A stretch of DNA of 64,000 nucleotides from Candidatus Freyarchaeum deiterrae (GTDB taxonomy: Archaea; Asgardarchaeota; Jordiarchaeia; Jordiarchaeales; Jordiarchaeaceae), in assembly GCA_037305845.1 (NCBI GenBank), contig CP147778.1, positions 3,008,001 to 3,072,000 on the forward strand. Direction: 5' to 3'. The position numbers were made by a program, and so were the translations under genes. The notes under the pieces were generated by a model. The model had not been told where the DNA came from. It ran no database searches and was given only the letters and a program-made list of their open reading frames with translations. The stretch's first letter is position 1. Each line of letters starts with the position of its first letter. Shown here one piece after another: positions 43,092-50,767 of this stretch.

Positions 43092-43112
43092 TTTTTGTAA
43101 ATTGTACACTAA
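43092..43112. promoter_or_regulatory. NrtR operator 2
   Basis: TTTTTGTAAATTGTACACTAA, GT-N7-AC, near the TATA region. Confidence 0.7.
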
Positions 43113-43299
43113 GTAAAGGATTATAATACTAACATAATTAAATAATAAAGAGAAACTTTCACAATCCTAATCACAACTATCTTCTAAAAATAGTGCTTTT
43201 CAACGTTTGGCCGGTGTTTATTGCAAATCTGAAGTCTCTAGAGTATGCTACTCTTCTCTCATAAATTGTAATGAAAAATAAAAAGTAGGGAAAATAAAA

Positions 43300-43923
43300 T
43301 TATTTTTCCTTGGTTTTTGGTTCTTTTTTGATTCTTTCTTCTTCTTGGGTGTGGAGTGTCATTAGAATTTTGGATTTGCCATTTCCGAGGATTGTTAGTT
43401 CATAGATGTAGTCTGCTGCTTCTTGTGTTTTTGGTCCTGGTGATATTTCTGTGATCTTCAAGTCGGGTGTCTCTGTTATTACGAGTTTTAAAAATATGTC
43501 GTACCCGTTTTTGTTTTCAATAATGATTTGCCTTTTATAGTCAACCGGCGTTGTACGGATTATTAGTTCGCCTACCTCAACTTCGGTTTTTTTGCCTTTA
43601 ATTCTGTCCTCAAACTTGCTTACGCAGAACACGCTCTTATCGATGATGCTTTGGGTTTCAAATTTTTTTGATTCAAAGCTTCCCTCGGTTTCGGTCGAAA
43701 GAAAGGGCAAGCCGCCCTTTAACATGGTTATGGAGCTCTTAGGAATATTGGTTGCTTCGGATATTTCAAAAACAAACTTTAAGGACGAATCTAATTTTAT
43801 TTCCAACTGTAGTGCTTCGTTTAACCAGTGTTTCAAATATATTTCGTGAATTTTTTTAACTTCAGCACTAACTTTCTGAATCGGCACAACAGCGGGTCGT
43901 CTCTGAGTAACAGTCAATTTCAT
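43300..43923 (-). CDS. DUF4139-like C-terminal-half protein
   Basis: Beta-rich; RQIIIENKN...LVITETP pattern; follows the DUF4140-like gene. Confidence 0.55.
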   Translation of the reverse strand: MKLTVTQRRPAVVPIQKVSAEVKKIHEIYLKHWLNEALQLEIKLDSSLKFVFEISEATNIPKSSITMLKGGLPFLSTETEGSFESKKFETQSIIDKSVFCVSKFEDRIKGKKTEVEVGELIIRTTPVDYKRQIIIENKNGYDIFLKLVITETPDLKITEISPGPKTQEAADYIYELTILGNGKSKILMTLHTQEEERIKKEPKTKEK

Positions 43924-43949
43924 TTTTGAACCTCCCTTCTTTCATACGT

Positions 43950-44675
43950 CTATCTCATTACCATTTTCAGGTTTTGCATCTCGTTCATCGCTTGACTCCT
44001 ACGCATAGAAGCCTTCCTTGTCTCAGTTTGTTGACCAGAAGGAGGAGTAGGATTAGGAAGACCTTCAGACATATCTATGGGCATTGGAGGGATTTCAAGT
44101 CCTAGATCGAATTCTGCTAGTGCAATATCTGAGTCGTAGGCAAAATTAGTGTTATTAATAATCGTTGCTGAAACATTAATTACTGCGGCTCCTTCGCCTG
44201 TAAGGTCTATTACCATTCTGGGTTCCCAGTAGATTCGGTTATCAAAAAGTATATATTTGATTTTTAGAGAGCAGGTTTTTTCGGTTTTGGAATCCACCCA
44301 TATTTTTACTTCGGCGAATTCATCCTGATACATACTGTAATAAATTGATTCACAAAGTTCCAAGAGCTGTTGCCTTTTATAAGGCAATCTTCTACTCTTA
44401 TCTATAATATCTCTGGAGACTTCCTGACGCGTCCTTATTTCTTCGTAAACAAATTCTGGCACTGGCTTTTTAATGTCTATTTGCTGCACATAAGCATCAT
44501 CGCAGTTTAATTCAACTTGTATCTGATTAATATCGAAAGAAGCTGGAATATCTTCAATTCTAAAGGTATTCATCCCTTTTACTAATTGCACCATTCCTTC
44601 ACGTTCAATCAAGGCACCGCCTTTATCAAAAATAATAACAGACGACACCTTGGGATTAAATGACTCAATAGACAT
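43950..44675 (-). CDS. DUF4140/MuiA-like N-terminal domain protein
   Basis: VSSVIIFDKGGALIEREG...G.N.FRIEDIPASFD...IQV, WEP, ATIINNT. Confidence 0.65.
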   Translation of the reverse strand: MSIESFNPKVSSVIIFDKGGALIEREGMVQLVKGMNTFRIEDIPASFDINQIQVELNCDDAYVQQIDIKKPVPEFVYEEIRTRQEVSRDIIDKSRRLPYKRQQLLELCESIYYSMYQDEFAEVKIWVDSKTEKTCSLKIKYILFDNRIYWEPRMVIDLTGEGAAVINVSATIINNTNFAYDSDIALAEFDLGLEIPPMPIDMSEGLPNPTPPSGQQTETRKASMRRSQAMNEMQNLKMVMR

Positions 44676-44928
44676 GTTTAGTATCCACCTCTATTCAAAA
44701 ACTTTCAATTCGCCGTAAGATAAATGGTCTATCTTACATTAAAACTTAGCCTCAGAAAAATGAACAATAGAAAAATATTGAGAAGAGATACTCCCACATA
44801 AATTTGTCAAGATTTATAAAAAACAAATTTATTATGCCTTTTTTAAACCACCCCTATCCTGCGTCTTGGTTGGTTCTACCCCCGCCCTCTTCCTTGTGGT
44901 TTTTCATCTTCCCCTTTCAGAGGATGTT

Positions 44929-45735
44929 TCACGCCCTACCCGGTTCCAGATCATCATCCATATCCTTAAGAAGCGGGGCACGTTTCCCTGCAAGGTTGGG
45001 GTTTATCTTTATAGCCTCATCGTAGCATTTTATCGCCTCATCGCGCTTTCCGAGATTATCCAATGCTGTGCCCTTGTTATACCATGCATCTGCATAGTTG
45101 GGGTCTATCTTTATCGCCTTATCGTAGCATTTTATCGCTTCATCGCGCTTTCCGAGATTATCCAATGCTGTGCCCTTGTTATACCATGCATCTGCATCTT
45201 TGGGGTTTATCTTTATAGCTTCATCGTAGCATTTTATCGCTTCATCGAATTTTCCGAGATCATACAACAATGCTGTGCCCTTGTTATACCATGCATCTGC
45301 ATCTTTGGGGTTTATCTTTATAGCCTCATCGTAGGATTCTATCGCCTCATTTGGCTTTACGGCACCAATCCTGAATCCAAATAAATCGGCCATCGTCTCT
45401 CCGAGCTTTTCGGCTTCAGGCCTAAACAATTCTGCGACCTTTTCTGCGACCCTTTGGTTCACCTCTTCGCGCTTTTTGGGGCCACCCTGTGGAATGGCCT
45501 TGTTAATCCTTGCATCTGTATGGTTGGGGTTTATCTTTAGAGCCTCATCGTAGCATTTTATCGCTTCATCGCGCTTTCCGAGACCATCCAATGCGTCGCC
45601 CTTGTTATACCATGCATCTGCATCTTTGGGGTTTATCTTTAGAGCCTCATCGTAGCATTTTATCGCCTCATCGTACTTTCCGAGCCTAGCCAACCCAATG
45701 CCCTTTTCAATCAATTCCTTTGCCGTTTTAGACAT
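44929..45735 (-). CDS. TPR protein, cassette copy 1
   Basis: AWYNKG..L..LGK.DEAIKCYDEAIKINP repeats. ATG at 45735 follows an AGGTGA SD; the ORF-track start at 45789 is probably too long. Confidence 0.92.
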   Translation of the reverse strand: MSKTAKELIEKGIGLARLGKYDEAIKCYDEALKINPKDADAWYNKGDALDGLGKRDEAIKCYDEALKINPNHTDARINKAIPQGGPKKREEVNQRVAEKVAELFRPEAEKLGETMADLFGFRIGAVKPNEAIESYDEAIKINPKDADAWYNKGTALLYDLGKFDEAIKCYDEAIKINPKDADAWYNKGTALDNLGKRDEAIKCYDKAIKIDPNYADAWYNKGTALDNLGKRDEAIKCYDEAIKINPNLAGKRAPLLKDMDDDLEPGRA

Positions 45736-46293
45736 TTTCTTCACCTTTAACTCGTTATTAAAGAAAAATTTGCTGAACCAAACACACATACGTGTACGAA
45801 ATTCATATTCCCTCCTATTTCGGAGTTGTTAAGTAAGCGAGCTTTATTTTACTTTTATTCGCAATTTCAGCGATACACCTTAACTTAATATTTATCGCCG
45901 CCACCTCTCAACATCAAATAAATGATTTTTTCTTAAATCTTATATATAGATATATAACTCATTCTTATTTCTTTCGCAATTTTTTAGCTTCCTCTGCACT
46001 TGAAACGAAACCAACCATTTTTAATTTCGATTCAAGTTTCAAACACGCTTACAGAAAGATGATTCGCAAGAAAGCCCAAGTCCCCTTTAGGAGGGTGGAA
46101 GAATTGCGAGAGGCTCAAATACCGAGAAAAGAGGAAAGCGAATAATAGGGCTGGTTCACCCGACGAAGAAGAAAAGGGTGTGGAAGCCGTTAATCGGGCG
46201 GTGGCACACGCCCCACACTTCTTGAACAACAGAAGTGTAGAACCCCCAACCTTTCCCTTTTCAGAGGGTGTTTCACGCTCTACCGGTTCCAGA
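45736..46293. repeat. Conserved intergenic spacer of the TPR cassette, copy 1
   Basis: Highly similar to 47257-47810 over its full length and to 49587-49910 over the promoter half. Confidence 0.92.
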
Positions 46294-47256
46294 TCATCCA
46301 CCCTTAAGAAGCTGGGCACGTTTCTCTGCGAGTTTGGGGTTTATCTTTATAGCCTCATCGTAGCATGCTATCGCCTCATCACGCTTCCCTAGATCAAACA
46401 ATGCTATGCCCTTGTATAACCATGCATCTGCGAGTTTGGGGTTTATCTTTATAGCCTCATCGTAGCATGCTATCGCCTCATCATACTTTCCGAGAAGAAG
46501 CAATGCATGGCCCTTGACAAACCATGTCCTTGCATCTTTGGGGTTTAGCTTTAGAGCCTCATCGAAGCATTCTATCGCCTCATTGAGCTTTCCGAAACCA
46601 TCCAATGCTGCGCCCTTGCCCAACCATGCATCTGCGAGTTTGGGGTTTATCTTTAGAGCCTTATCGTAGCATGCTATCGCCTCATCGAGTTTTCCGAGAT
46701 GAAACAATGCAACGCCCTTGTTATTCCATGCTGCTGCATCTTTGGGGTTTAGCTCTAGAACCTCATCGAAGCATTCTATCGCCTCATCATGCTTTCCGAG
46801 ACCATCCAATGCTGCGCCCTTGCCCAACCATGCATCTGCATATTTGGGGTTTATCTTTAGAGCCTTATCGTAGCATGCTATCGCCTCATCGAGTTTTCTG
46901 AGACCAAGCAATGCATTGCCCTTGTTAACCCATTGCTCATCGGGCTTTTCGAGACCAAACAATGCTGCGCCCATGTCTCTCGCCTTATCGGGATTTCCTA
47001 TACCAAACACTGCAATGAACTTGTTATCATTTGCCTCTTTATATTTGGGTTTTATCTTTATAGCCTCATCGAAGCATTCTATCGCCTCATCATGCTTTCC
47101 GAGATCAAGCAATGCAACGCCCTTGTTATTCCATGCCTCTGCATCTTTGGGTTTTATCTTTATAGCCTCATCGAAGCATTCTATCGCCTCATCATGCTTT
47201 CCGAGACCAAGCAATGCAACGCCCTTTTTAAGCCATTCCTCTGCCTTTTTAACCAT
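46294..47256 (-). CDS. TPR protein, cassette copy 2
   Basis: TPR repeats; ends LAEKRAQLLKGG; homologous ATG at 47256. Confidence 0.92.
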   Translation of the reverse strand: MVKKAEEWLKKGVALLGLGKHDEAIECFDEAIKIKPKDAEAWNNKGVALLDLGKHDEAIECFDEAIKIKPKYKEANDNKFIAVFGIGNPDKARDMGAALFGLEKPDEQWVNKGNALLGLRKLDEAIACYDKALKINPKYADAWLGKGAALDGLGKHDEAIECFDEVLELNPKDAAAWNNKGVALFHLGKLDEAIACYDKALKINPKLADAWLGKGAALDGFGKLNEAIECFDEALKLNPKDARTWFVKGHALLLLGKYDEAIACYDEAIKINPKLADAWLYKGIALFDLGKRDEAIACYDEAIKINPKLAEKRAQLLKGG

Positions 47257-47810
47257 TTTCATCACCTATAACTCGTTATTGAAGAAAAATTTGCTGAACC
47301 AAACACACATACGTGTACGAAATTCATATTCCCTCCTATTTCGGAGTTGTTAAGTAAGCGGGCTTTATTTTACTTTTATTCTCAATTTCAGCGATGCACC
47401 TTAACTTGATATTTATCTCCGCTACCTCTCAGCGTCAAATAAATGATTTTTTTTCTTGAAGCTTATATAGCTTTATAACTTGTTCTTATTTCTTTCGAAA
47501 TTTTTTTGCTTCCTCTGCACTCGAAACGAAACCAACCATTTTTAATTTCGTCAAGTTTCAAACACGCTTACAGAAAGATGATTAGCAAGAAAGCCCAAGT
47601 CCCCTTTAGGACGGGGGAAGAATTGCGAGAAGTTCAAATATCAAGAAAAGAGGAAAGCGAATAATAGGGCTTGCTCACCCGACGAAGAAGAAAAGGGTGC
47701 GGAAGCCGTTAATCGGGCGGTGGCACACGCCCCACACTTCTAACAACAGAAGTGTAGAACCCCCAACCTTTCCCCTTTCAGAGGATGTTTCACGCTCTAC
47801 CGGTTCCAGA
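47257..47810. repeat. Conserved intergenic spacer, copy 2
   Basis: Aligns to 45736-46293. Confidence 0.92.
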
Positions 47811-49586
47811 TCATCCACCCTTAAGAAGCTGGGCACGTTTCTCTGCGAGTTTGGGGTTTATCTTTATAGCATTATCAATGCATTTTATCGCCTCATCGCG
47901 CTTTCCGAGACCAAGCAATGCATCGCCCTTGTTAACCCATGCACCTGCATGGTTGGGGTTTATCTTTATCGCCTCATCGTAGCATGCTACCGCCTCATCG
48001 CGCTTTCCGAGACCACTCAATGCTACGCCCTTGCTATACCAAGCCTCTTCATATTTGGGGTTTATCTTTATCGCCTCATCGTAGCATTTTATCGCCTCAT
48101 TGCGCTTTCCGAGACCACTCAATGCTACGCCCTTGCTATACCATGCCCATGCATATTCGGGTTCTATCTTTATCGCCTCATCGTAGCATTCTACCGCCTC
48201 ATCGCCCTTTCCGAGACCACGCAATGCGTTGCCCTTGTCAACCCATGGACCTGCATTTTTGGGGTTTATCTTTATCGCCTCCTCGTAGCATTTTATCGCC
48301 TCATCGCCCTTTCCGAGATCAAGCAATGCAGCGCCCTTTTTAGTCCATGCATCTGCATGGTTGGGGTTTATCTTTATCGCCTCCTCGTAGCATTTTATCG
48401 CCTCATCATGCTTTCCGAGACAATTCAATGCATTGCCCTTGTTATACCATGCCTCTGCATCGTTGGGGTTTATCTTTATAGCCTTATCAAAGCGTTCTAT
48501 TGCCTCCTCGGGATTTGAGAAATAACCCAAGGATTCACTGAACTTTACTGCAGCGTCTTTAAAGGCCTTGTCAAAAATGCCCTTTTCAAGGGCCTTGTCA
48601 AAAGTGCCATTGAGTCCAAGAACCTCCTCCAAAATGTCTGTGAATTCCTCCTCATCACCGAACTCTTCGAGACCACCCAATGCAATGCCCTTGTCTATTG
48701 CCTCCTCGGGTTTTCCGAGACCACGCAATGCAATGTCCTTGTTATTCCTTGCATTTGCATAGTTGGGGTCTATCTTTATCGCCTCATCGTAGTATTTTAT
48801 CGCCTCCTCGGGCTTTCCGAGATCACCCAATGCTACGCCCTTGTTATTCCATGCATTTGCATTGTTGGGGTTTATCTTTATCGCCTCATCGTAGCATTCT
48901 ATCGCCTCCTCGGGCTTTCCGAGACCATAAAATGCTACGCCCTTGTTATTCCATGCCTCTGCATTTTTGGGGTTTATCTTTATAGCCTCATCGTAGCATT
49001 TTATCGCCTCATCATGCTTTCCGAGATCACCCAATGCTACGCCCTTGTTATACCATGCACCTGCATGGTTGGGGTTTATCTTTATCGCCTCATCGTAGCA
49101 TTCTATCGCCTCATTGCGCTTTCCGAGATCACTCAATGCATTGCCCTTGTTATACCATGGCTCTTCATGGTTGGGGTTTATCTTTATAACTTTATCATAG
49201 CATTCTATTGCCTCCTCGCGCTTTCCGAGATCATAAAATGCATTGCCCTTGTTATACCATGCTTCTTCAGAGTTGGGGAATATATTTGTATACTCATCGT
49301 AGCATTTTATTGCCTCCTCGGGCTTTCCGAGATCAAGCAATAAATCGCCCTTGATATGCCATGTCCCTGCATCTTTGGGGTTTATCCTTGTAACCTCGTC
49401 GTAGCATTTTATCTGCTCCTCGGGCTTTCCGAGACCAGTCAATGCAATGCCCTTGTATAACCATGCCTCTGCATAGTTGGGGTCTATCTCTATAACCTTA
49501 TCAAAGCATTTTATTGCCTCATCGTACTTTCTGTGCAGATACAAACCATAGCCCTTTTTATACAATTCCTTTGCCTTTTTATCCAT
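47811..49586 (-). CDS. TPR protein, cassette copy 3
   Basis: TPR repeats; ends LAEKRAQLLKGG; homologous ATG at 49586. Confidence 0.92.
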   Translation of the reverse strand: MDKKAKELYKKGYGLYLHRKYDEAIKCFDKVIEIDPNYAEAWLYKGIALTGLGKPEEQIKCYDEVTRINPKDAGTWHIKGDLLLDLGKPEEAIKCYDEYTNIFPNSEEAWYNKGNAFYDLGKREEAIECYDKVIKINPNHEEPWYNKGNALSDLGKRNEAIECYDEAIKINPNHAGAWYNKGVALGDLGKHDEAIKCYDEAIKINPKNAEAWNNKGVAFYGLGKPEEAIECYDEAIKINPNNANAWNNKGVALGDLGKPEEAIKYYDEAIKIDPNYANARNNKDIALRGLGKPEEAIDKGIALGGLEEFGDEEEFTDILEEVLGLNGTFDKALEKGIFDKAFKDAAVKFSESLGYFSNPEEAIERFDKAIKINPNDAEAWYNKGNALNCLGKHDEAIKCYEEAIKINPNHADAWTKKGAALLDLGKGDEAIKCYEEAIKINPKNAGPWVDKGNALRGLGKGDEAVECYDEAIKIEPEYAWAWYSKGVALSGLGKRNEAIKCYDEAIKINPKYEEAWYSKGVALSGLGKRDEAVACYDEAIKINPNHAGAWVNKGDALLGLGKRDEAIKCIDNAIKINPKLAEKRAQLLKGG

Positions 49587-49910
49587 TTTCTTCACCTATA
49601 ACTCGTTATTAAAGAGAAATTTGCTGAACCAAACACACATATGTGTGTATGAGATTCACATTCTCTCCTATTTCGGAGTTGTTAAGTAAGCGAGCTTTAT
49701 TTTACTTTTATTCGCAATTTCAGCGATACACCTTAAGTTAATATTTATCTCCGCTATCTCTCAACATCAAATAAATGATTTTTTTCTTAAAAATTAAATA
49801 TAGAGAGATATGTAACTTATTCTTATTTCTTTCGCAATTTTTTAGCTTCCTCTGCACTTGAAACGAAACCAACTATTTTTAATTTCGGTTCAAGCTTCAA
49901 ACACTTTTAC
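49587..49910. repeat. Conserved leader/promoter block, copy 3
   Basis: Aligns to 45736 to about 46050. Confidence 0.9.
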
Positions 49911-50084
49911 TATTAAACACTACTCCAAAAAATCACTCTGAACTCTTTACCCGACCATCATTAGAAGTGATTCTCCTTGAGTCCAAGAAATAGAGGTGGC
50001 AATTCAAAAGTAGAAAAGCTTCACACCAAAACAGTTTCAACCCTGAATCTAGAACCTAAGAAATAGCTTAAACACCCCCGCTTT

Positions 50085-50215
50085 CATCCCTCTTAACACT
50101 CTATTTAGAGACACTACTACCCTTGCGTCCCCCAAATCTCTCCAAGAGCCTGCGCTGCACGCTCTCGAAAATACCAAGTTTCGTCCTTTAGCCCTGTATT
50201 AGTGGTTCTAAGGGC
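50085..50215 (-). pseudogene. Frameshifted HEAT-repeat remnant
   Basis: Reads LEPLIQ/KDETWYFRERAAQALGEI/GDARVVVSL across two frameshifts; DNA resembles the HEAT genes (ATTAGTGGTTCTA). Confidence 0.7.
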
Positions 50216-50303
50216 AGCTCAGTCAGTGAGGGTTTCGTCAAGAGAGAAGGGGGCGAGGTGTGGCGAAGGGGAAGAAAAAACTAGGAATAGTTGAACCCTT
50301 AGT

Positions 50304-50738
50304 TTACAATTTTCCAATGTCCTCGTTCCATAGTTGAGGGTTGCCCTGTATGAACTTATTCATTAATTGCTTACATTCGTCAAGGTTCAGGTCGATTACT
50401 TCAACTCCATGTGATTCCATAAATTCTCTTGCGCCAGCGAAGGTTTCAGATTCGCCGACAATCATTTTCTTAATTCCGAACTGAACGACCGCTCCGGCGC
50501 AAAGGAAACAGGGCATTAACGTGGAATAAAGAATGGTATCGCTATATTTGCCGATTCTTCCCGCGTTTCGTAGGCAATCAATTTCTGCGTGCATAATTGG
50601 GTCATTCTCTTGTACACGTTTATTATGTCCTCTCCCTACAATTTTTCTGCCCTTCACTAGGGCTGAACCAATCGGAATCCCGCCTTCACTTAGTCCCTGT
50701 TTCGCTTCTTCAATAGCAGCTCTCATGAATGGGTCCAT
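50304..50738 (-). CDS. Cytosine/nucleoside deaminase (zinc-dependent)
   Basis: HAEIDC and PCFLC motifs; WNEDIG C-terminus as in yeast-type cytosine deaminases. Confidence 0.92.
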   Translation of the reverse strand: MDPFMRAAIEEAKQGLSEGGIPIGSALVKGRKIVGRGHNKRVQENDPIMHAEIDCLRNAGRIGKYSDTILYSTLMPCFLCAGAVVQFGIKKMIVGESETFAGAREFMESHGVEVIDLNLDECKQLMNKFIQGNPQLWNEDIGKL

Positions 50739-50767
50739 AGTTTTACCTCCACCAATTTAGTTAAGGT

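Follow-up and report, generated by a model that had tools for sequence, protein, structure and literature searches.

Three genes coding for tetratricopeptide repeat (TPR) proteins stand one behind the other in a stretch of 64,000 nucleotides of the genome of Candidatus Freyarchaeum deiterrae (contig CP147778.1, positions 3,008,001 to 3,072,000; this whole stretch is called here the window, and its coordinates are used unless the genome is named). They are separated by spacers of almost identical sequence, and this arrangement raises the question of whether the locus is a dedicated system in which conserved non-coding frames shuffle variable coding cassettes, as the original prediction proposed, or whether its layout has a simpler origin. 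The locus probably represents a lineage-specific tandem TPR family undergoing repeat turnover and diversifying selection, whose spacers are young and unselected and whose inserts are inherited debris. A layout that looks like conserved frames with variable cassettes can come from ordinary processes: the duplication of genes in tandem, the trapping of a transposon remnant, the turnover of repeats and selection on binding residues.

The genes and their products

The genes, designated g1 to g3, are the following:

44929-45735, minus strand: TPR gene g1, 268 amino acids (aa); two N-terminal TPRs, a broken repeat with a linker, three C-terminal TPRs and a cap helix
46294-47256, minus strand: TPR gene g2, 320 aa; two TPRs, two helix-A half-units, six TPRs and a cap
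47811-49586, minus strand: TPR gene g3, 591 aa; eight TPRs, a broken repeat with an acidic linker, one degenerate repeat, six TPRs and a cap helix

Positions, lengths and common orientation of the three genes agreed with those originally predicted, and so did the main features of their architecture: each array is broken at an A..NK.I repeat without Trp4, each gene ends with an LA.KRA.LLK cap helix, and the fixed DNA framework words were found within the 102-bp consensus unit. The three products are strong TPR_1/TPR_2 matches, with TPR_1 scores of 207.7, 306.2 and 492.8 bits for g1, g2 and g3, respectively, against a Pfam cut-off of 27.8. The Pfam scan of the three proteins returned TPR-type families only, and neither NACHT nor NB-ARC, the domains that define NOD-like receptors (NLR) and other signal transduction ATPases with numerous domains (STAND), was among them. 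PADLOC gave weak, generic TPR-only overlaps for the locus and nothing more specific, and a homolog search with g2 retrieved generic TPR proteins of at most 58% identity, none with the same architecture. A fourth member of the family, g4, is unlinked to the others (genome coordinates G000:456155-456877, plus strand) and codes for 241 aa with six TPRs and no insert or interruption; it carries the leader and the tail of the array genes (G000:C1:455750-456877, plus strand). The four proteins are best explained as cytosolic stand-alone TPR proteins of a Jordarchaeia/Freyarchaeia (Asgard) genome.

Some minor observations concern the same genes. The stop codon of g2 and g3 (LLKGG*) is lost in g1, which reads about 13 codons (DMDDDLEPGRA) into the shared 3' tail (44929-44970, minus strand). 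Long antisense open reading frames (ORFs) of up to 273 aa, for instance 47697-48518 on the plus strand, cross the TPR arrays as a by-product of the repeats and are unsupported as genes. A further tnpB gene lies 1.7 kb downstream of g4.

Hypervariable codons of the TPR groove

The variation among repeats is concentrated at few positions. Amino-acid entropy reached 1.5 bits or more only at positions 2, 5, 6, 9, 12, 13, 17 and 34 (8 of 34), while W4, K7, G8, K16, E19 and P32 were invariant. In pairwise Nei-Gojobori counts on 27 repeats, the eight hypervariable codons showed a nonsynonymous difference per site (pN) of 0.505, compared with a synonymous difference (pS) of 0.119 at the 26 other codons, taken as the framework; the ratio is 4.25 (bootstrap 3.1-6.2). 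Within the hypervariable codons themselves pN/pS was 1.65 (1.34-2.12), and in the 24 closest repeat pairs hypervariable pN was 0.282 versus a framework pS of 0.069. Repeats are less similar as proteins than as DNA, with between-repeat amino-acid identities of 0.61-0.84, below the nucleotide identities of 0.79-0.91; the mean amino-acid identity of the repeats was 0.84 in g1, 0.66 in g2 and 0.65 in g3, with 0.81-0.91 at the nucleotide level.

The location of these codons is informative. Magliery and Regan 2005 (PMC1261162) described positions 2, 5, 9, 12, 13, 33 and 34 as the variable or concave ones of the TPR, and ligand contacts in HOP at positions 2, 5, 6, 9, 12 and 13. Positions 2, 5, 6, 9, 12, 13 and 34 of the present set coincide with variable or ligand-contacting positions of that work; the predicted hypervariability of groove-facing codons was borne out, seven of the eight codons lying at such positions and the eight together diverging about four times as much as the neutral proxies. 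Such a pattern would need selection for, or retention of, diversity, because gene conversion would homogenise the interleaved hypervariable codons together with the framework. Diversifying selection acting on the concave face would provide each paralog with a different peptide or protein ligand specificity.

The same substitutions could be read in another way, as those of redundant paralogs that drift under relaxed constraint after a recent lineage-specific duplication and form no adaptive repertoire, the surface positions being free to vary for want of any constraint. The framework pN/pS near 1, the degenerate linkers and the loss of the family stop codon in g1, with read-through into the tail, are consistent with drift, as are the failure to find the TPR family in congeners and the lack of common functional partner genes at the g1-g3 and g4 loci. 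However, all four ORFs remain intact despite numerous array indels, 24 repeats show no change at the structural TPR positions W4, G8, A20 and P32, and hypervariable pN is about fourfold both neutral proxies, an excess that neutral drift would hardly yield. Drift as the whole explanation is considered unlikely.

Turnover and exchange of repeats

Repeat finding recovered 26-29 in-register copies of the 102-bp unit, and 5, 8 and 15 units of 34 codons are recognisable in g1, g2 and g3, respectively. The closest relatives of a repeat are mostly in its own gene (88-94% identity in g1; 94% for g2_5/g2_39 and also for g2_140/g2_208). Between genes, arrays aligned in register were 79% identical and those in shifted registers 77%; positional orthology has been erased, since the in-register identity is barely above the off-register one. 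The longest exact tracts measured 57-61 nt within genes, and 60 nt (at the g2/g3 C-terminal cap) and 47 nt between genes, and tracts no longer than 61 nt argue against very recent conversion.

New arrays would arise through unequal crossing-over and gene conversion among the 102-bp units. The middle gene may illustrate this: g2 resembles g1 most at the N-terminus and g3 most in its cap, tail and insert, including the 60-nt exact match at the cap, and this mosaic affinity hints at an origin by unequal crossover. A simple g1/g3 crossover chimera was considered and not retained; the affinities of the two ends partly support it, and the arrays are without positional orthology. Of the recombination-diversified repertoire that had been predicted, the change in repeat number, the homogenisation within genes, the loss of orthology and the fast groove codons stand, and the last agree with a binding repertoire under diversification. 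The differing repeat numbers would suit a dedicated cassette system as well, while the shortness of the between-gene conversion tracts, the longest of 60 nt, speaks against one.

Composition of the spacers

The two full intergenic spacers measure 558 and 554 bp and are 93% identical. The near-identical spacers of about 555 bp claimed for the three genes are therefore real in two cases; upstream of g3 only the leader of about 310 nt is common (87-92%). By searching the single-contig genome of the host (3.58 Mb) with the spacer, this was divided into three parts, a 3' tail of about 38 nt, a truncated miniature inverted-repeat transposable element (MITE) of about 205 nt and a leader of about 310 nt. 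The parts are listed below, with LE and RE denoting the left and right ends of the element:

45736-46046, minus strand: leader of g1, with an AT-rich TATA-like tract (about 200 nt to the start codon) and, as a Shine-Dalgarno-like motif, GGTGA
46047-46255, plus strand (tnpB orientation): MITE copy w1, an LE plus RE deletion derivative without the 19-nt RE terminus; TTAC abuts the LE end
46256-46293, minus strand: 3' tail of g2, with homologs behind g1, g3 and g4
47257-47565, minus strand: leader of g2
47566-47772, plus strand: MITE copy w2, 94% identical to w1, with the same truncated RE junction
47773-47810, minus strand: 3' tail of g3
49587-49992, minus strand: region upstream of g3, with the leader it has in common with g1 and g2 in its proximal 320 nt or so; no MITE, TTAC site present

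The nature of the middle part is indicated by its distribution. At least 12 more places in the genome, unrelated and intergenic, carry spacer positions 39-245 with 78-85% identity. At two loci the halves of the element (element positions 1-109 and 117-197) are separated by about 1.2 kb and flank an ORF of 409-418 aa that matches OrfB_IS605 and Cas12f1-like_TNB, that is, TnpB. Because its halves flank such an ORF at both loci, the dispersed element is identified, by sequence comparison, as a deletion derivative (MITE) of an insertion sequence (IS) of the IS200/IS605 family, and it keeps the last 33 codons or so of tnpB. Its RE end is structured (z = -3.1), and the 12 copies inspected all end in GTAA, which corresponds to TTAC on the tnpB strand (the plus strand of the window). 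Copies outside the window all begin with CTGACATACTCC / CTGACATACTCCCCACCTT, whereas w1 and w2 are without that 19-nt RE terminus and have an identical junction to the gene tail. Moreover, these two copies share 94% identity with each other versus at most 85% with any other genomic copy. From the shared junction and the mutual identity it follows that they were copied with the duplicated unit and do not represent two insertions. Since the RE terminus is missing they are probably immobile; no Y1 transposase (TnpA) was detectable in the genome.

Elsewhere in the genome, intact tnpB copies are found at G000:C1:3247879-3249294 and 2434938-2436345, 94% identical to each other, together with about a dozen LE plus RE derivatives of about 200 nt, including those at G000 85.8, 274.9, 276.1, 277.5, 301.9, 841.3, 947.9, 2246.5 and 2966.2 kb. 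Six additional, distant tnpB families are present in the genome.

The other two parts of the spacer belong to the gene. The 38-nt tail directly follows the stop codon behind g1, g2 and g3, and a diverged version is found behind g4; the tail is not part of the MITE, as g4 carries the same tail without a MITE. The leader, searched for elsewhere in the genome as the prediction recommended, appeared at a second location, immediately before the start codon of g4 (about 310 nt, 78% identity). The upstream homology of g3 and g4 extends to about -406, some 90 nt past the position of the MITE in the other two units. These relations show, at the level of sequence, a duplicated unit that consists of leader, gene and 38-nt tail, with the truncated MITE placed at both unit junctions and copied along.

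No known structured RNA was recognised in the spacer. An Rfam scan of the whole window at gathering score gave no family and no tRNA genes were found; the sR46 (C/D-box) signals at the 3' ends of g2 and g3, seen in a permissive scan, scored 21 and 18 bits versus a gathering score of 50 and were taken as chance. In the alignment of the four leaders the consensus fold was weak (-22 kcal/mol), and 0 of 51 predicted pairs were compensatory, with no covariation. An upstream ORF starting at GGAGG-ATG was also discarded as unconserved, indels in the (RY)n tract breaking its frame and its start being lost in g3. This alternating purine-pyrimidine tract (ACACGTATGTGTG and variants) is present in each leader with a different length (45770-45800, 47290-47320 and 49620-49655, minus strand).

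Are the spacers specially conserved?

Raw identity gives the impression that spacers are more conserved than coding arrays, as the prediction held, and this is among the points that favour a dedicated cassette system, in which the non-coding frames would be recombination or regulatory scaffolds for shuffling TPR modules and the inserts would act as bait or decoy. The spacers are 93% identical as against 77-84% for the in-register coding arrays, and identity falls abruptly at the start codon. The leader also holds a conserved imperfect palindrome, CTTGAA.CGAAA-N14-TTTCG.TTCAAG, confined to this TPR family and found at no other site of the genome.

The measured divergences change this picture. 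Leaders differ by 0.091 (g1-g2), 0.080 (g1-g3) and 0.107 (g2-g3), and by 0.21-0.22 from that of g4; the MITE copies w1 and w2 differ by 0.06. Synonymous divergence at the 26 framework codons was 0.115-0.152 between repeats of different genes and 0.155-0.20 against g4. The non-coding parts thus diverge at about the synonymous rate, and the most suitable reading of the spacers is that of young duplicates largely free of selection. The claimed excess of conservation survives in raw identity only, since a spacer divergence of 0.06-0.11 is close to the synonymous 0.115-0.152, and the margin of spacer over synonymous identity, without which the prediction was to be abandoned, nearly disappears. What had been taken for a conserved frame is a truncated IS200/IS605 MITE plus a leader duplicated and diverging at a nearly neutral rate, and no dedicated scaffold; the spacers would appear conserved merely through youth and absence of selection.

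A dedicated cassette system has to account as well for the fact that 205 nt of each spacer are a truncated MITE, of which the genome contains many unrelated copies, and for a genome with no match to a reverse transcriptase or a Y1 transposase. A search for RVT_1 gave no match anywhere in the 3.58-Mb genome, and the candidate of a diversity-generating retroelement target was ruled out, the genome being without reverse transcriptase. We regard the cassette system as improbable.

The inserts are remnants of a broken repeat

The arrays are interrupted by the following segments:

45301-45519, minus strand: insert of g1, aa 73-145; a helix-A half-unit (70% identical to the consensus unit) and about 31 gene-specific residues, after which the array resumes at unit nt 42
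46942-47040, minus strand: insert of g2, aa 73-105; two consecutive helix-A half-units
48459-48758, minus strand: insert of g3, aa 277-376; helix-A half-units followed by some 40 acidic residues specific to the gene and by a degenerate TPR

The three inserts start in frame with a helix-A half-unit that is 70-78% identical to the consensus unit at the DNA level. In addition, the g2 insert and the start of the g3 insert, both with a second helix-A half-unit, share 77% identity over 83 nt. The description of the inserts as unique to each gene does not hold in view of this common start and of the g2/g3 similarity. Comparison of these segments indicates that they descend from one broken TPR in an ancestor of g1-g3 and diverged later; the interruption was inherited from that ancestor because the inserts are homologous, g4 being uninterrupted. 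That inserts are inherited TPR debris, and not independently acquired, is a further argument against a cassette system, and none of the results pointed to inserts acting as bait or decoy.

Structure prediction by AlphaFold2 in single-sequence mode placed the inserts between two confident arms. Paired TPR helices were modelled with a predicted local distance difference test (pLDDT) above 90. In the g3 model residues 1-293 and 357-590 form confident TPR solenoids, and the pLDDT drops below 50 at residues 298-356; in that of g1 the confident parts span 1-80 and 128-250, and the pLDDT is about 45-52 for residues 81-127. The prediction of insert structure, which had been recommended, thus supported the two arms but left the inserts themselves at low confidence, and they are read as flexible or unmodelled hinges. 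Each protein would be a two-armed adaptor or receptor, with arms joined by a flexible gene-specific hinge.

Origin of the locus

The following history is favoured. An ancestral gene would have carried a full MITE at the TTAC site about 310 nt upstream. A tandem duplication would then have brought the tail of the gene against the MITE, 19 nt inward from its RE end, where a GAA microhomology is visible at the tail-MITE junction, and a further unequal crossover would have duplicated the whole spacer. As for an intact MITE before the first gene, it would later have disappeared by precise excision, or was never present. An alternative history, in which the MITE was inserted into an existing junction and then truncated, fits the data equally and is not distinguished from the former.

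Several points weigh against a family of young, unselected spacers and selected groove codons. The hypervariable set was picked by its variability, which inflates its pN, and the statistics are pairwise counts that do not model recombination. The framework pN/pS of about 1 (0.69-1.34) could mean generally relaxed constraint. A binding-repertoire function would be deduced only from the location of the variable codons. The whole-codon pS between the C-terminal arrays of g2 and g3 is 0.18, and since it exceeds the divergence between the two spacers (0.07), the spacers may have undergone later gene conversion. Finally, the congeneric genomes that speak for lineage specificity are fragmented metagenome-assembled genomes (MAGs), in which repeats are often unassembled.

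Genomic context and assembly

The neighbouring NadB has its nearest relatives in Jordarchaeia/Freyarchaeota MAGs, with 86-88% amino-acid identity, which places the host among the Asgard archaea. In one congener the genes for NAPRTase and NadB are 2.5 kb apart, versus 9.6 kb here, with no TPR array, deaminase or DUF4140-like gene between them. Searches of five congeneric genomes, which are fragmented MAGs, 87-99% complete, detected neither the leader nor the DNA of the repeats. The segment of about 7.6 kb at 43100-50760, between NAPRTase and the gene for a single-stranded DNA-binding protein (SSB)-like product and NadB, has no counterpart in the congener and contains, besides the three TPR genes, two DUF4140-like ORFs and a gene of cytidine-deaminase fold. 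The orientation of the SSB-like gene differs between host and congener. At 43300-44675 (minus strand) two adjacent ORFs of 241 aa (sub-threshold DUF4140) and 207 aa (no Pfam) lie 26 nt apart and may derive from a single gene interrupted by a frameshift or a stop.

Arrays of this kind invite the suspicion that their order and copy number result from collapse or expansion of the 102-bp repeats during assembly. The repeats are 75-94% mutually identical, and short-read contigs break throughout the region, none of them spanning the array. Nevertheless, the genome is one closed contig and the repeats are diverged enough (exact runs of at most 61 nt) for the placement of long reads. Furthermore, the unique segments of each gene (inserts, leader variants and flank junctions) were recovered without a single difference in contigs from four runs belonging to two studies, of wetland and freshwater sediment. 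An assembly artefact is very improbable. In the same metagenome contigs, which are short-read Logan contigs with none across the array, the unique segments presented no alternative alleles, and this lack of alternative forms counts against a cassette system too. The contig joints listed have sides of 21-37 nt and look like other organisms or repeats. No RNA dataset holding the locus was found among the public runs listed.

Comparison with known systems

IS608 inserts 3' of TTAC, and IS200/IS605 elements have short non-autonomous derivatives of the MITE or palindrome-associated transposable element (PATE) type. The spacer element resembles these derivatives in consisting of the two ends of a tnpB-bearing element, in having TTAC on its LE side and in its structured RE end. 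It differs from mobile IS200/IS605 MITEs in that the window copies are without the 19-nt RE terminus and multiplied through duplication of the segment rather than through transposition.

Designed consensus TPR proteins (CTPR) are built from consensus 34-residue repeats and a C-terminal solvating helix. The array proteins share with them consensus-like 34-residue units (A.AW.NKG.AL..LGK.DEAI.CYDEAIKINP..) and one extra capping helix, although they are natural genes whose array is split by a degenerate linker and whose groove positions are diversified. As in the general variation of TPRs (PMC1261162), the most variable positions are the concave-face or ligand-contacting ones. In contrast to that pattern, position 17, where helix B starts, is hypervariable too, and the variation is found here among recently related repeats; since these young repeats have a framework 88% identical at synonymous sites, it reflects fast change and not deep divergence.

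Among known phenomena, the nearest is the concerted evolution and diversifying selection of fungal NLR repeats. Dyrka et al. 2014 (PMC4986451) described, in the TPR, ANK and WD repeats of fungal NLR (STAND) proteins, near-identical DNA units with changes of number, shuffling and positive selection of the concave face; earlier work on these repeats by Paoletti et al. 2007 is cited there. The locus has in common with them the near-identical DNA units, the change of repeat number, the shuffling within and between paralogs and the hypervariable concave-face positions (PMC4986451). It departs from them in that the array proteins, stand-alone TPR proteins of an archaeal host, are without NACHT/NB-ARC or effector domain, and in that the mean repeat identities (0.84, 0.66 and 0.65 for g1, g2 and g3) are below the criterion of more than 85% over at least 100 aa used in PMC4986451. 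It is conceivable, though rather unlikely, that the family is an archaeal, effector-less counterpart of NLR-type repeat sensors, that is, a set of rapidly diversifying two-armed TPR receptors whose specificity would be renewed by shuffling and selection; if true, they would possibly be directed against viruses, mobile elements or partner organisms. The pattern is already known from other repeat receptors and does not constitute a new kind of system. The feature of wider interest is the diversifying signature at the groove positions of a young, lineage-specific TPR family in an Asgard archaeon, and its four paralogs are a small, tractable set for ligand questions on archaeal repeat proteins.

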